DNA from: Gemmatimonadota bacterium
GTDB taxonomy: Bacteria; Gemmatimonadota; Gemmatimonadetes; Palauibacterales; Palauibacteraceae
Assembly: GCA_039588275.1 (NCBI GenBank)
Contig: JBDHAC010000019.1
Span: 59,311-86,724 of the forward strand
DNA: 27,414 nucleotides
Reading direction: 5' to 3'
Below, in pieces: positions 12,358 through 18,504 of this stretch; position 1 is the first letter of the stretch; every line of letters starts with the position of its first letter. The notes below the pieces were generated by a model. The model searched no databases, was not told where the DNA came from, and worked only from the letters and a program-made list of their open reading frames with translations. The position numbers and the translations under genes were made by a program.

Positions 12358-12774
12358 ATGCGCAGGTCACTCATCGCCTCCGTACTCCTTTCGCTGCTGC
12401 TCGTCAGCGCCGCCGCGGCTCAAGAAGAGTCCGACGAGTGCAGGCGTTGGTCGGTCGAAGTCCAGAACTCGGAGCGTTACGACCTCTCGGTGTATTCGTT
12501 CCGGGGTGAGCGGGTGCCACCGAAGGTGTATCAAAGCGAGCGCGGCAGACTCCGCGGCAGGTTCCTGAAGCGCGTAACCGCCCGGAGCAACGAGACCCTC
12601 GAGCTCCCGGCCGGGGAGAGCCTGATTTGGATCGAGCCCGTGGGTTCGGAGCACGAGCTACGGGACAGGGGCTGGTCGGAATCGAGCGCGATCGTCGCCT
12701 CCCCGACTCGCCGGACCCGCCTCACGCAGGTTCGTATTCGGGCCGAGTATACTTGCCTGGACGAGCCCGGGTAG
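12358..12774 (+). CDS. Secreted hypothetical protein
   Basis: AGGAG RBS; signal peptide MRRSLIASVLLSLLLVSAAAA-QEE; one Cys near each end of the mature chain. Confidence 0.7.
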   Translation: MRRSLIASVLLSLLLVSAAAAQEESDECRRWSVEVQNSERYDLSVYSFRGERVPPKVYQSERGRLRGRFLKRVTARSNETLELPAGESLIWIEPVGSEHELRDRGWSESSAIVASPTRRTRLTQVRIRAEYTCLDEPG

Positions 12775-12912: not shown

Positions 12913-13380
12913 ATGCGCAAGCTCCCGCTCTACTTGGGTCTGTTGATCGCCTTCGGCGTGCCGGGCGCCGTCGCCGCGCAGGAAGAGGAGGCGCAGGAAG
13001 AAGAGGCGCCACCGACGCTCCGCCTCTCCTTCTACCAATGCGATTTGAGCCAGATGGGCCCCACCGGCGAACAGATCGAGACGATGGAGATCCCGATCTG
13101 GGAGGAGCTGGTGGACGAGGGGATGGTGGACAGCTACGGGCACTTCTTCCACGCTTGGGCGAGCGAATGGAACGTCGGAATCTACACGGTCGCCGATAAC
13201 ATCGAGGCCGTGCTCGCCGCGACCGAGGAGTTCGGAAATCGCATGCAGGAGCGCCACCCCGACGCTGACGCCGGTCTCAACCAGGTGTGTCCCTCGCATC
13301 GGGACGGCTTCTACGTCTTCGGACCACGGACGGGTGACGATGAGGACGAAGGCGAGGATGAGGATGAAGGCGGCAGCTGA
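12913..13380 (+). CDS. Secreted acidic hypothetical protein
   Basis: AGGAGG RBS; signal peptide ending AVAA-QEE; followed by a terminator. Confidence 0.8.
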   Translation: MRKLPLYLGLLIAFGVPGAVAAQEEEAQEEEAPPTLRLSFYQCDLSQMGPTGEQIETMEIPIWEELVDEGMVDSYGHFFHAWASEWNVGIYTVADNIEAVLAATEEFGNRMQERHPDADAGLNQVCPSHRDGFYVFGPRTGDDEDEGEDEDEGGS

Positions 13381-13579: not shown

Positions 13580-15181
13580 CTAATCCGGGTCGCGGTTCTC
13601 CAGCCGCTCGAACGGACTATCGAGCCGCTCTCGCGCGTACGGCGTGAAGTCGTACGTGAGTCCGTACTGGCTGTGTTGCCACCCATCGTCGATCCCCATC
13701 TCGACCACCCGGGCATAGCGATCGCGGGCGGCATCACGCCGGCCCAGGAGATCGAGGGCGTGCCCCTGCCACAGCAGGGCGAAAGCCACATACCCCTCGG
13801 AGGCTCCACGGGTGAGGACGAACGCGTGCATTCGCTCGAAGACGTGTAGCGCGTCCTCGTACCGCTCCTCATCGTAGAGGGCGAACCCGAGCCGCATGAA
13901 GTCTCGTGCTGCGTCGAGCTGGTCGAGCCACCCCGGTGCGTACCTTGCGGCGATCACCGTGCTCCCGGCCCGACCCCAGTTCTGAGAGCGAATCGCGTAC
14001 GCGGGTGCCGCCTTACGCGCTTCGTCCCAGCTCGCCAGTTGACGCTGGTACTCGGCCAGTGCGGATGGGGTCACCTCTGGCAGGGACTCGACGAACGCTC
14101 GCAGGGTTTCGAAGAACGCCTCGGGGTCCTCGTCGTAGATGCCGTGTCCGGCGTCCCGGAACCGCTCGAAGCGCGCGTTCGGGTGGTTGCCCCTGAGAAT
14201 GTCCGGCTTTTGCTCTCCCCAGGTGAGGTCCCAATCCCCCTCGAGGATCAGGGTGGGTATCGGATTCCCCTCGAACGCTCCGGTCAGATCCACCCGCCCC
14301 GCGCTGCCGTTCATGATTCCGTTGAAGTTCTCGTCGTGGTCCCACTCGTACAGCGCGATCTGGGCGAGCCGCTCCGGCGAAGGCCGGTAGTAGTGCTGAC
14401 GCTTCCAATCCCCGTTGGAGAAGTTGTTGTACAGGAGGAGTTGGATGAACTCCGTTCGCGAGAGATCCTCCGCTTCGCGAAGGCTGTCCAACCGGACCCG
14501 CATGGCGCGCATGTGATCGCGCTCTTCCTGCGTCAGAAAGCTGCCCTGCCGCGACGGGCCCGTATCGATCCACATGCCGGGGGATGCGCCCACCAGCGCC
14601 AATCCCGCGACGGCATCGGGGTGGATCGTCGTGTAGTACTGGGCCAGGAATCCGCCGTACGAGTAGCCGAGGACGATCCACTTCTCGATCCCGAGCGCGC
14701 GGCGAATCCCGTCCAGGTCTTCCACCGCCTGCTCGACGGAGTACCCGTCAGGCCCCGGAGCCCGTTCCGACAGCCCCGTGCCACGCTGGTCGTAGTACAC
14801 GACGCGCGCGAACTCCGCCGCCCGGGAGAACCAGGGGTGGAAGTAGTGGTGCGTGCCGCCCGGCCCTCCGTTGATGAGCACGATCGGAATCGCGCCGGGG
14901 ATCGCGCCCCCCTCCGTCTCGACGTACAGCCCGGCACCGACGTCCAGTCGGTGCACCTCGAGGCTATCGAGTCGGTCACACCACCTCGCCACCGGCGGGA
15001 TTTCGGTCAGGAGAGCAGGTTCCAGGTGCACGACGCGGTCGTGGATTGACTCGCGCGCGGTGGCCGCGGTGCTCGGTCCGGTGACAGGCCGGCCCTCACC
15101 TTCGACGGAAGGACCGGTGCACGAGAGGAGAACGCCCCAAGCGACGAGGATTGCTTTCGGCGCGAGGCCTTTGGCTCGCAT
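13580..15181 (-). CDS. Alpha/beta hydrolase (proline iminopeptidase/S33-like), probable lipoprotein, with a C-terminal TPR-like domain
   Basis: AAGGA RBS before ATG 15181; LLSC lipobox; NGGPGG, YYDQRGTGLS and GYSYGG nucleophile elbow; GDWD acid and AGH His; helical C-terminal extension. Confidence 0.88.
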   Translation of the reverse strand: MRAKGLAPKAILVAWGVLLSCTGPSVEGEGRPVTGPSTAATARESIHDRVVHLEPALLTEIPPVARWCDRLDSLEVHRLDVGAGLYVETEGGAIPGAIPIVLINGGPGGTHHYFHPWFSRAAEFARVVYYDQRGTGLSERAPGPDGYSVEQAVEDLDGIRRALGIEKWIVLGYSYGGFLAQYYTTIHPDAVAGLALVGASPGMWIDTGPSRQGSFLTQEERDHMRAMRVRLDSLREAEDLSRTEFIQLLLYNNFSNGDWKRQHYYRPSPERLAQIALYEWDHDENFNGIMNGSAGRVDLTGAFEGNPIPTLILEGDWDLTWGEQKPDILRGNHPNARFERFRDAGHGIYDEDPEAFFETLRAFVESLPEVTPSALAEYQRQLASWDEARKAAPAYAIRSQNWGRAGSTVIAARYAPGWLDQLDAARDFMRLGFALYDEERYEDALHVFERMHAFVLTRGASEGYVAFALLWQGHALDLLGRRDAARDRYARVVEMGIDDGWQHSQYGLTYDFTPYARERLDSPFERLENRDPD

Positions 15182-15213: not shown

Positions 15214-15396
15214 CTATCCGGGTGGTCTTCGGCAAAGGCCGTCGACATCGCAGATGAGGCCCGCACAGCAGGGAGAGTCTTCGTCGCAGGCCGTAAAGGT
15301 GCCCCCGCAACTCGGGAAGAGGAGATCCGAGCAGGCAGGCGCGCCACTCATTGTCGCGGCGAGCACGAACAAGACCACCGAAGCGAGTCGCTTCAT
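15214..15396 (-). CDS. 60-aa exported Cys-rich micro-protein with inhibitor-cystine-knot-like spacing
   Basis: Signal peptide MKRLASVVLFVLAATMSGAPA-C; C-X6-C-X5-CC-X4-C-X5-C; ends 32 bp before the co-directional hydrolase; no clear SD. Confidence 0.75.
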   Translation of the reverse strand: MKRLASVVLFVLAATMSGAPACSDLLFPSCGGTFTACDEDSPCCAGLICDVDGLCRRPPG

Positions 15397-15567
15397 ATCT
15401 ACAAGCTACACACAGGCGTGTAGGGCCGCCTCGGCTGCACGGCGGCGCGCCTGCGCTGCGACACGCGGTGCTCCCCGCGACCGCCTGTCTTGCTACCGCT
15501 CCGCGCCCCTGCCTAAGCTCACCGCCAGCCATTCGTGAGTGCTCTTCCAGTCAGTGAGGAGGCATCG

Positions 15568-18504
15568 ATGAAGCTCGACCGCTGGACGTCGATCTACAGG
15601 GAGGCGGTGGGGGTGCTCGTGGCTCTCGTCGCGTGTATGGGCCCGATATCGGCGAGTGCGCAGCAGGCGAAGACCGCGCTGGATCACGAGGATGTCCTCC
15701 GCTGGACTCGCATCGAGGATCGCGCGATTTCTCCGGATGGCCAATGGGTCGCGTACGCACTGACTCGTCTCGAGGGCGAACCCTCCCTCGTCATTGCGGC
15801 CACCGATGGATCGGGAAGGGAGCTGCGCCTCCGGGGCACCGATCCGGTCTTCACCGGCGACTCACGCTTCGTCGCGTTTCGGGTTCCTCCCAGGGAGTCG
15901 GTGCTCGATTCGCTCAAGCTGGAGGGGGAAGAGGAAGACGACCTGCCCGGTGACTCCGTTGCTGTCGTGACCATCGCCGACGCCTTCGTTACCGGGGGGG
16001 CCGCGGATGCGGGAGTCTTCCGCGCCGGACCCGTGGAATCGTTTGCCGTACCCGAGAAGGGTGGTGCCTGGCTGGCGTACCTGATGAAGAAGGAGGAGGC
16101 CGAGGAGCCCGGCGCCCCTCAGGAACAGGAAGAGGCGAAGGAAGAGGACGACGAAGAGGATCGGAAGAAGAAGGAAGATGGCACGCCGCTGCGGGTCCGC
16201 GATCTCACGACCGGCGGAGAGCACGAATTCGAGTATGCGCTCAGCTATGCCTGGGCAGAGAACGGAAGCGTGCTCGCGTACGCCGCGTCGACGGAGGACG
16301 GGAGCGCGGACGGCGCGTTCGTCGTCGAGCCGGTCGGCGGCCGGCGCCACGAGGTGGCTGCCGGTGAGGGGCACTTCAAGGGCCTCGCGCTGGATGAGGC
16401 AGGCAGTCGCTTCGCCTTTCTAACGAACCGGGACGACTGGGAGGCGGACGAGCCCGCGTACACGCTCTACGCGGCGGATTCGGGTGAGTGGAACGCCCGC
16501 CTGGTCGCGGACCACGAGACGGAGGGTGTACCAAGCGGCTGGTGGGTGAGCGAGCACAGAGACCCGAGCTTCTCGGAGGATGGATCGCGGTTGTTCTTCG
16601 GGACCGCTCCCAGACCGGAGCCCGAGCCCGATGAGGAAGTGCTGGACGAGGACCGGGTCGAGCTCGATGTGTGGAACTGGAAGGACCCGTACCTGCAACC
16701 GAATCAGCTCGTCCAGGCCGACGACGAGAAGAAGCGAACCTACCTGGCGGTCGCACACGACGGTGACGAAGGGATCGTCCAACTCGGCTCTCCGGATGTC
16801 CCGGATGTGCGTCAGACCGAGGACGGGGCCGGCGACTTCGTGCTGGGTACGACCGATGGCCCCTACAGGCAAGAGATCTCGTGGGACGGCAGATATCAGG
16901 ACGCGTACGCGATCGACGTGCGCACGGGGACCCGCCGTCGGATCGCCACGCGGATCCGGGGGTTCGGGGGCGGGCGTCTGTCTCCGGGCGGCACCTACGC
17001 GTACTGGTGGGACGGCTCGGATCGGAGTTGGAAGGCCGCCCGCATGGACGGCTCCGGAGAGACCGTGAACCTTACGGGCGAGATTCCCTTCCCGATGTAC
17101 AACGAGCTGGACGACCGCCCGCAGCAACCCGGGTCGTACGGGAACCCGCAGTGGACGGAGGGGGATCAGGCGCTGCTGGTGTACGACAAGCACGACGTGT
17201 GGCGGACAGACCCCACCGGCCGCGACGATCCCGTGAACCTCACCGACGGACACGGCCGCCGTGCCGACCTGCGCTACCGGGTCATGAGCGTGGACTCCGA
17301 GGAGCCTGCCGTCCCGAACGGCGACATCCTCCTGTCGAGCTTCAACCTCGACACCAAGCGGGCCGGGTTCGCCCGCGGACGATCCGACCGCTCGGCGGAG
17401 CCACAGGAGCTGATGGCGGCGGATGCTTCGTTCGGGGCCCCGCAGAAGGCCTCACTAGCCGACGTCCTGGTCTGGACGCGCCAGAGCTTCGTGGAGTTCC
17501 CCGACTTGTGGGCGAGCGGCCCCGAATTCAGCGACTCCCGTAAGCTGAGCGACGCGAACCCACAGCAGGCGGAGTACCTGTGGGGGACTGCCGAGCTCGT
17601 CTCGTGGACCTCGAACGATGGCACGCCGCTTCAGGGCATCCTCTACAAGCCCGAGGGCTTCGACGCGACTCGGAAGTACCCGATGATGGTGTACTTCTAC
17701 GAGCGCATGTCAGACCGGCTGCACCAGTATCGGACGCCGCGCCCGGGGAGCAGCTCCGTGGCGTTCTCGTTCTACGTCAGCCGCGGATACCTGCTCTTCG
17801 TGCCCGACATCCCGTACGAGATCGGCTATCCAGGCGAGAGCGCGCTGGATGCGGTCGTGCCCGGCGTGCTGTCCCTCGTCGAGGAGGGCTTCGTGGACGC
17901 CGATCGCATCGGCGTGCAGGGACACTCCTGGGGTGGGTATCAGATCGCCTACATGATCACCAAGACCAACCTGTTCGCCGCCGCGGAGGCGGGGGCTCCG
18001 GTATCCAACATGACGAGCGCCTACGGCGGGATTCGCTGGCAAACGGGGCTGAGCCGGATGTTCCAATACGAGCGAACGCAAAGCCGGATCGGCGGGACGC
18101 TGTGGGAGTCGACCATGGAGTACCTGCACAACTCGCCCGTCTTCTACGCCGACAAGATCCAGACGCCGCTCCTCATGATGCACAACGACGAGGATGGCGC
18201 GGTGCCCTGGTACCAGGGGATCGAGATGTTCGTCGCGATGCGACGCCTCGGCAAGCCCGCCTTTCTGTTGAATTACAACGGCGAGGCCCACGGGCTGAGG
18301 CGCGATCCCAACCAACGCGACTGGGCGATCCGCATGCAGCAGTTCTTCGATCATTACCTGCTGGACGCGCCTCCTCCGGTTTGGATGGAGCACGGGGTAC
18401 CGGCCGTCGTGAAGGGGCGGGACATGGGGCTCGAGCTCGTGACCGAGGCGACCGTTTCGCAGGAGGAGGGCGAACAGGCGCGATCCGGAGGAGGCTCGCG
18501 CTAG
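15568..18504 (+). CDS. Secreted S9 family (prolyl oligopeptidase/acylaminoacyl peptidase-like) serine peptidase
   Basis: GAGGAGG RBS; signal peptide ending ASA-QQ; propeller start ISPDGQWVAY; catalytic triad in GHSWGG, HNDEDGAVPW and GEAHGL. Confidence 0.95.
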   Translation: MKLDRWTSIYREAVGVLVALVACMGPISASAQQAKTALDHEDVLRWTRIEDRAISPDGQWVAYALTRLEGEPSLVIAATDGSGRELRLRGTDPVFTGDSRFVAFRVPPRESVLDSLKLEGEEEDDLPGDSVAVVTIADAFVTGGAADAGVFRAGPVESFAVPEKGGAWLAYLMKKEEAEEPGAPQEQEEAKEEDDEEDRKKKEDGTPLRVRDLTTGGEHEFEYALSYAWAENGSVLAYAASTEDGSADGAFVVEPVGGRRHEVAAGEGHFKGLALDEAGSRFAFLTNRDDWEADEPAYTLYAADSGEWNARLVADHETEGVPSGWWVSEHRDPSFSEDGSRLFFGTAPRPEPEPDEEVLDEDRVELDVWNWKDPYLQPNQLVQADDEKKRTYLAVAHDGDEGIVQLGSPDVPDVRQTEDGAGDFVLGTTDGPYRQEISWDGRYQDAYAIDVRTGTRRRIATRIRGFGGGRLSPGGTYAYWWDGSDRSWKAARMDGSGETVNLTGEIPFPMYNELDDRPQQPGSYGNPQWTEGDQALLVYDKHDVWRTDPTGRDDPVNLTDGHGRRADLRYRVMSVDSEEPAVPNGDILLSSFNLDTKRAGFARGRSDRSAEPQELMAADASFGAPQKASLADVLVWTRQSFVEFPDLWASGPEFSDSRKLSDANPQQAEYLWGTAELVSWTSNDGTPLQGILYKPEGFDATRKYPMMVYFYERMSDRLHQYRTPRPGSSSVAFSFYVSRGYLLFVPDIPYEIGYPGESALDAVVPGVLSLVEEGFVDADRIGVQGHSWGGYQIAYMITKTNLFAAAEAGAPVSNMTSAYGGIRWQTGLSRMFQYERTQSRIGGTLWESTMEYLHNSPVFYADKIQTPLLMMHNDEDGAVPWYQGIEMFVAMRRLGKPAFLLNYNGEAHGLRRDPNQRDWAIRMQQFFDHYLLDAPPPVWMEHGVPAVVKGRDMGLELVTEATVSQEEGEQARSGGGSR

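Follow-up and report, generated by a model that had tools for sequence, protein, structure and literature searches.

A duplicated Gemmatimonadota gene family for small, likely lipid-anchored proteins with a predicted cystine knot

The locus and its small gene

The window analysed here is a stretch of 27,414 nucleotides on contig JBDHAC010000019.1 of a Gemmatimonadota bacterium, whose 4.1-Mb genome is called G000; G001 and G002 are sister genomes of the same genus. On its minus strand the window carries a gene for a 60-amino-acid exported protein, P0001, with six clustered cysteines in the spacing of the inhibitor cystine knot (ICK) of knottins. A first-pass annotation had described this open reading frame (ORF) as bearing a signal peptide, a lone Cys22 preceded by A-P-A, and the array C-X6-C-X5-CC-X4-C-X5-C. 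Translation reproduces all of this exactly, with cysteines at 22, 30, 37, 43, 44, 49 and 55, and supplies the strand, which had not been given. The mature part has a net charge of -4. The features of the gene are as follows, where dN/dS is the ratio of nonsynonymous to synonymous substitution rates and pLDDT the predicted local distance difference test score.

15214..15396, minus strand: gene for the 60-amino-acid knottin precursor P0001, stop codon included (translation; 80%-identical orthologue, dN/dS 0.148)
15334..15396, minus strand: signal peptide, residues 1-21, with a basic n-region, a hydrophobic stretch and a polar T/S/G/P stretch to A-P-A (sequence reading; layout common to the family alignment)
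15331..15333, minus strand: Cys22, likely lipidation site in a non-classic lipobox (invariant in 30/30 aligned rows)
15310..15330, minus strand: linker of 7 residues from anchor Cys to knot (low pLDDT; 4-25 residues across the family)
15232..15309, minus strand: C-C-CC-C-C six-cysteine domain, residues 30-55, predicted inhibitor cystine knot (PF07740 score, model, structure matches)
15403..15408, minus strand: TAGCTT, a -10-like hexamer 6 nt 5' of the ATG that probably drives a leaderless mRNA (also present in G001 and G002)

The cysteine motif alone is weak evidence for a gene, because a six-frame translation of the 4.1-Mb genome contains 20 occurrences of a loose C-C-CC-C-C pattern, all but this one resembling off-frame noise. 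The strict pattern has a single genomic occurrence, the P0001 gene (0, 0, 1, 0 and 0 in five simulated 4.1-Mb genomes). The same gene is the one short ORF in G000 that combines a signal peptide, a Gly/Ala-Cys and at least seven cysteines, a combination found in none of five simulations. A full orthologue, 80% identical, lies at the syntenic locus of G002, and two more exist as database proteins, gene-called by public sources. Of the 37 base changes between the G000 and G002 genes, 21 affect the third base of a codon; dN/dS comes to 0.148 for the whole gene and to 0.10 for the mature part, and purifying selection is strongest in the P0001 frame when the frames are compared. On this comparative evidence 15214..15396 (minus strand) is a real, conserved gene, and the standalone gene of the first-pass annotation holds; the conservation search it had proposed also led to a family in 22 genomes, described below.

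Predicted knot and fold

The cysteine spacing of P0001 falls within the KNOTTIN definition of a knottin-compatible array (PMC2238874), and its first loop of six residues is a common knottin length (PMC2238874). This loop has six residues in 38 of the 41 family members with a full knot. The PF07740 (Toxin_12) profile scores P0001-P0004 at 21.9, 24.6, 26.4 and 24.6 bits, above its gathering cut-off of 21, and matches 11 of 30 family members at E<=0.05. With this cut-off passed and loops of 6/5/0/4/5, the knottin framework claimed earlier for the protein is supported at the level of the profile.

The proposed structure prediction pointed the same way: the AlphaFold model of P0001 reaches a pLDDT of 85-86 over residues 31-60, with low values in the linker, and lies nearest to solved knottins. 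Its structure matches are mostly knottins, at low Z scores of at most 2.9, and the predicted fold superposes at a root-mean-square deviation of about 1.4-2 A over 30 residues. Among solved structures, channel toxins and protease inhibitors come closest. The six cysteines of P0001 are thus predicted, from model and profile, to adopt an inhibitor cystine knot.

A duplicated family with a patchy distribution

The family was built from weak matches in relatives with identical layout. Two profile-search rounds yielded 34 intact copies in 22 Gemmatimonadota genomes and 11 distinct database proteins, 45 sequences in all. Of 48 places returned by the profile search, those above an E of about 1e-3 were mostly signal-peptide-only or off-frame and were dropped, with G038:C103 kept. 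A 31-amino-acid fragment (L126, G014:C78) and the noise matches L384 and L385 are excluded from the count. A 30-sequence profile matched 16 of 145 genomes of the order at E<=0.001, among the near-complete ones 7 of 75. In a phylum sample scored on 15 candidates per genome, at least 17 of 401 genomes matched. Thirteen matching genomes of that sample lay outside the order; on inspection seven were real, five were noise and one (L114) had another cysteine pattern. The distribution is patchy, and the family is apparently undescribed.

G000 has a single copy and G004 the maximum of five, and some copies form tandem arrays of two or three. On G004:C197 the tandem paralogues retain the signal peptide (64-87%) and diverge in the mature part (14-39%), unlike the G004:C247 pair, whose knots are nearly identical. 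In orthologue pairs, the ratio of nonsynonymous to synonymous differences per site (pN/pS) at non-cysteine positions of the mature part is 0.21-0.51 in the four closest pairs and 0.77 in two distant ones. By this crude method mature-region pN/pS is below 1 in 17 of 19 pairs, the other two (1.07 and 1.12) being near-saturated paralogue pairs. Loops conserved between orthologues and changed between paralogues would fit a stable scaffold with variable binding loops. Judged by these alignments, P0001 is one member of a diversified gene family, which goes beyond what a single sequence could show.

Several related arrangements were seen alongside the family. A third tandem copy sits in a 146-codon frame at L088:7023-7460 (G014:C64), with a second signal and Cys start upstream; it has no clear start codon of its own and is possibly a fusion or a readthrough product. 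L114 (G383:C1:3574660-3574830) is a small lipoprotein-like ORF with a similar signal and linker and the array C-x3-C-x-C-x3-C-x2-C-x3-C. A metagenome lipoprotein, L154:1-456 (minus strand), which runs off its contig, carries a knottin-like module at its start and a long Ser/Gly linker behind it. Candidate micro-lipoproteins of 40-83 amino acids with one disulfide-like cysteine pair occur at L069:1504-1653 (G048), at L074:1498-1617 (G037) and at G000 C7, C12, C24 and C25, which suggests a wider set of tiny cysteine-containing lipoproteins in the order.

Signal peptide and lipid anchor

Members share one layout, in which a basic n-region and a hydrophobic stretch lead into a polar T/S/P/G segment; then come a Cys, a linker of 4-25 residues often ending in G-P-x, and C-C-CC-C-C. 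Outside the cysteines, the commonly kept residues are two Gly and one Leu. The net charge of the knot runs from -7 to +3 across the family, so that the earlier description as acidic suits the mature part of P0001 and does not carry over to its relatives.

The extra Cys after the signal peptide is present in 42 of 45 sequences, with Gly or Ala at -1 in 40 of these 42; G375 is left out of the count, as its first knot Cys had been mistaken for the anchor. The cysteine total is odd in 41 of 42 (7 or 9), which implies that additional cysteines arrive in pairs and one is left over. G000 encodes Lgt, LspA and LolA, together with DsbA-like and VKOR genes. Its signal-plus-Cys proteins, taken from heuristic gene calls, are relaxed at -3 and strict at -1 (G/A/S in 265 of 301), and 9 of the 265 have Pro at -2. 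Ycf48 is a documented case of a protein that is lipidated although its lipobox is atypical (PMC8038367). Considering this pattern, Cys22 is likely lipidated.

Two points qualify the case for an anchor. The anchor-Cys counts are biased upward because the search profiles contain that Cys. The classic lipobox, [LVI][ASTVI][GAS]C, is found in 1 of 41 members, and the G-A-P-A-C of P0001 fits neither it nor the relaxed PROSITE-type pattern (21 of 41 members), because of the Pro at -2. The lipid-tethered standalone knottin of the first-pass annotation is supported by a lone Cys conserved like a lipid anchor, although its lipobox is non-classic.

Two six-cysteine knottin-like ORFs of another Gemmatimonadota family, L112:1498-1695 (G506) and L115:1480-1671 (G375), have a signal peptide and no anchor Cys. 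Their proteins are probably a soluble counterpart, resembling the published KrICK discussed at the end.

Alternative explanations

The ORF might be spurious, a shadow cast by an antisense frame or by that of the neighbouring hydrolase, or it might stem from eukaryotic contamination. Its dicodon score is below zero and is bettered by another of the six frames, G000 and G002 both have an open mirror antisense frame (dN/dS 0.27), the open frame of the hydrolase extends through the P0001 DNA, and the exact P0001 sequence is missing from the protein collection. These points tell against a real gene, although an open antisense frame is the shadow expected from selection on the P0001 strand. Since selection is strongest in the P0001 frame, the identical architecture recurs at unrelated loci in 22 genomes and orthologues have been called publicly, a spurious ORF is largely refuted. 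The same holds for contamination, as the contig GC content of 0.656 is within the range of the other listed contigs and the flanks are syntenic in both sisters; together these readings are highly improbable. A look for RNA data on the organism listed none, and DNA contigs of four runs overlap parts of the window without the ORF; both outcomes are uninformative either way. Granting a real gene, its cysteines could bind metal, in a metallothionein-like protein or small metal-cluster lipoprotein, or form a non-knotted disulfide fold of the Dickkopf/EB kind. Look-alikes in Atlas (<0.9) include Myxococcota DUF7107, Dickkopf_N and EB proteins, Dickkopf_N matches weakly in 4 of the 30 members of alignment A4 (best E 0.0034; DUF7107 in 0 of 30 at E<=0.05), and the disulfide connectivity of P0001 is a prediction. 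Export in a genome with DsbA-like and VKOR genes, extra cysteines that arrive in pairs, the six-residue loop 1, a length common among knottins (PMC2238874), and structure matches dominated by knottins all argue for a disulfide knot instead, and make metal binding or another fold quite improbable.

A further possibility concerns the fate of the signal peptide. Signal peptidase I (SPI) could release a soluble knottin that is not a lipoprotein, leaving Cys22 as a free thiol or in an intermolecular disulfide, as a dimer or attached to another protein. The long polar T/S/P/G stretch and the A-x-A before Cys22 do resemble an SPI site, the classic lipobox is missing in most members, and the two relatives in another family share the layout without the Cys. 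This release is nevertheless unlikely: Pro at -2 in 16 of 41 members and Met, Ile, Leu, Asn or Gln at -3 in 11 of 41 fit the -3/-2 preferences of SPI poorly, the Cys follows Gly or Ala directly whatever the linker length (4-25), as an N-terminal anchor would, and comparable signal-plus-Cys starts head long proteins in these genomes.

Promoter and genomic surroundings

G000 and its two sister genomes all keep the hexamer TAGCTT, which lies 6 nt ahead of the ATG in G000 and 7 nt ahead of it in G001 and G002. In G000, TANNNT is enriched 6-9 nt before starts (13, 22, 13 and 10 of 2182 genes, against 1-11 at other offsets). Because the hexamer lies 6-7 nt before the ATG, at a spacing enriched genome-wide, a leaderless transcript is suggested, which would also support the ATG start. 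A sigma-70 scan found no full promoter at the P0001 gene.

Downstream by 32 bp lies an alpha/beta hydrolase (window 13580-15181, minus strand), S33-like and proline-iminopeptidase-like. It scores under the NCBIfam cut-offs, starts with a lipobox-type sequence and has, towards its C terminus, a region resembling tetratricopeptide repeats. In G001 an in-frame fusion joins the first 30 knottin codons to the final 24 residues of this hydrolase, and the knot is lost. The fusion (L017:6001-6168, G001:C27) corresponds to window 15396-15307 plus 13657-13580; about 1.65 kb is gone, comprising the knot and nearly the whole hydrolase, and the 55-amino-acid chimera, P0005, is in the protein collection. 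It may be a deletion or a misassembly.

Close relatives of the hydrolase occur in 17 of 60 related genomes, for the most part in the order's other family, and no knottin ORF lies within about 1.5 kb of it at any of these 17 loci; G002 carries the knottin gene without a hydrolase match at E<=1e-40. On the other side, a secreted S9-family peptidase (window 15568-18504, plus strand) is transcribed divergently from the knottin gene, and between the two genes lies a conserved block that shows TTGCTA...TAAGCT spacing on the peptidase strand. This peptidase flanks the knottin gene in the three genomes of the genus only. As neither enzyme is a recurrent neighbour, inhibition of flanking peptidases was rejected as a family trait.

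A precursor of a ribosomally synthesized and post-translationally modified peptide, or a bacteriocin cluster, was also considered and rejected. The window holds no adjacent modification enzyme, dedicated exporter or immunity gene, and among 39 neighbours of members at 19 loci there is no recurring partner, modifying enzyme or immunity gene. Neighbourhoods are shared between orthologous loci only. A radical-S-adenosylmethionine-like ORF lies two genes downstream of the knottin locus in G001 and G002, on the opposite strand; in G000 it is elsewhere.

Elsewhere in the window, a lone NuoB-like gene (PF01058; 9189-9854, plus strand) stands outside a nuo operon, between an unannotated protein and a 2-oxoglutarate-Fe(II) oxygenase. 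Two exported proteins of 129 and 155 amino acids (12385-12774 and 12913-13380, plus strand) have no Pfam match and are kept at 66-84% in both sisters.

Proposed function

The exported, likely lipid-anchored predicted knottin may serve as a small binding module tethered to the membrane, its partner residing in the envelope of the same cell; we rate this proposal as evenly poised. Transcription would start from the gene's own, likely leaderless, promoter, as the conserved -10 hexamer suggests. After Sec export, Lgt would transfer diacylglyceryl to Cys22 and LspA would cleave the precursor; DsbA-like and VKOR proteins would then form the predicted disulfides I-IV, II-V and III-VI, all these enzymes being encoded in the genome. 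Transport to the outer membrane by the Lol system is probable, given LolA and the Ser at +2 as read by the E. coli sorting rule. There, a protease-resistant knot on a short linker could bind and modulate one partner, for instance an outer-membrane receptor or transporter, or a periplasmic enzyme. Orthologues that retain their loops would keep a fixed partner, and duplicates that retain the signal peptide and alter the loops would acquire new ones.

An own-envelope partner is favoured because the orthologues are conserved rather than racing and no marks of a toxin or bacteriocin cassette are seen. The idea is drawn by analogy with small disulfide-bonded lipoproteins such as Llp of phage T5, and on that footing could equally be right or wrong. 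Llp binds and modulates the outer-membrane receptor FhuA (bioRxiv 10.64898/2026.03.26.714494); as described there it is phage-encoded, unrelated in fold and sequence and not a knot, and the analogy is functional only.

The anchored knottin could alternatively face outward, on the cell surface or on vesicles, against a protease, channel or receptor of a grazer or competitor, as part of a defence effector family with venom-like evolution. Tandem duplication with a conserved signal and divergent mature region, up to five copies per genome, patchy presence, and closest solved folds among channel toxins and protease inhibitors would suit such a role, which we consider unlikely. Positive selection leaves no sign, mature pN/pS being below 1 in 17 of 19 pairs by the crude method, orthologues are under purifying selection, and no immunity, secretion or modification genes lie beside members. 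Gating-modifier toxins are cationic and squash trypsin inhibitors carry Arg or Lys in loop 1, whereas P0001 is acidic and has neither residue in that loop; a common fold, moreover, does not show function. In its boldest form, this would be the first lipid-anchored bacterial knottin family of venom style, with conserved signal, hypervariable knot and tandem duplication, which Gemmatimonadota would display on their surface so as to inhibit the proteases, channels or receptors of grazers, competitors or phages. We regard this version as doubtful; if true, the toxin scaffold would have a function native to bacteria, and the family would provide a natural library of bacterially folded knots.

Whichever partner an envelope-tethered knot may have, the family has wider significance. 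The knottin scaffold is of major importance among toxins, inhibitors and drugs, yet its bacterial examples in the publications cited below amount to a small number of predicted sequences that have neither a structure nor a function. Forty-five natural sequences with orthologue pairs and tandem paralogues allow a test of whether the Dsb/VKOR proteins of bacteria produce true cystine knots. They also make testable the contrast between unanchored and lipid-anchored knots in the envelope, and whether the scaffold is ancient or convergent. They point, in addition, to a class of lipoproteins of 60-90 amino acids that are mostly unnamed in sequence databases.

Comparison with known systems

The first-pass annotation placed this framework mainly in eukaryotes, a view that needs correcting. 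KrICK of Ktedonobacter racemifer, reported in 2013, is a standalone signal peptide plus mature ICK, and HoHP-ICKD of Haliangium ochraceum is the C-terminal ICK domain of an S8 protease; both are known only from sequence and homology models (PMC3694633). The KNOTTIN database has a "Bacterial knottins" family, with no experimental structure as of 2017 (PMC5753296). The family is thus not the first bacterial knottin, because KrICK and the KNOTTIN entries precede it. It shares with KrICK and HoHP-ICKD a bacterial ICK-framework sequence, and with KrICK the standalone form with a signal peptide. Unlike KrICK, for which the published description reports no lipid-anchor Cys, it has a likely one, a distinction by description and not by sequence comparison; and those proteins are single examples, where this is a duplicated family. 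The KNOTTIN sequences are likewise bacterial, set apart by description rather than by comparison with the member list, and the database text names none of the Gemmatimonadota genomes studied here (PMC5753296).

With spider ICK toxins (PF07740) and the conotoxin O-superfamily (PF08087/PF02950) the family shares C-C-CC-C-C with a six-residue loop 1, and with spider toxins also paralogues of conserved signal and variable mature part. P0001 differs from spider toxins in having an extra N-terminal Cys in a lipobox-like context instead of a propeptide, and in being acidic; typical PF07740 members are cationic. The 21-residue toxin match does not show common descent, because it is driven by cysteine spacing, and descent cannot be told from convergence on 26 residues.

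Among bacterial exported proteins, the small cysteine modules of Myxococcota (DUF7107, PF23416; Dickkopf_N, PF04706; EB; Conotoxin_I2-like) are similar at Atlas values of 0.84-0.89, leads only, as are unnamed Acidobacteriota and Myxococcota clusters of 62-83 amino acids (<0.9, again leads only). The Myxococcota modules are part of longer proteins, in contrast to the knot here, which is the whole mature product, and membership was rejected since P0001 has no Pfam match to DUF7107 or Dickkopf_N. The CCPGW putative bacteriocin (NF047792) consists of small cysteine-rich bacterial peptides with faint similarity at the CC motif. Membership was rejected here too: P0001 gives no match, the G265 copy scores 13.9 bits against a cut-off of 80, one of the 30 rows of alignment A4 matches (E 0.0088), and none of five genomes exceeds the cut-off. 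No fitting NCBIfam model was found for P0001 or the family. A search of the openly accessible literature listed no lipid-anchored or Gemmatimonadota knottin family, and PMC9885460 adds nothing to the comparison. Against these systems, the apparent novelty lies in the combination of a likely lipid anchor with gene duplication, in which paralogues retain their signal peptide and diverge in the knot.
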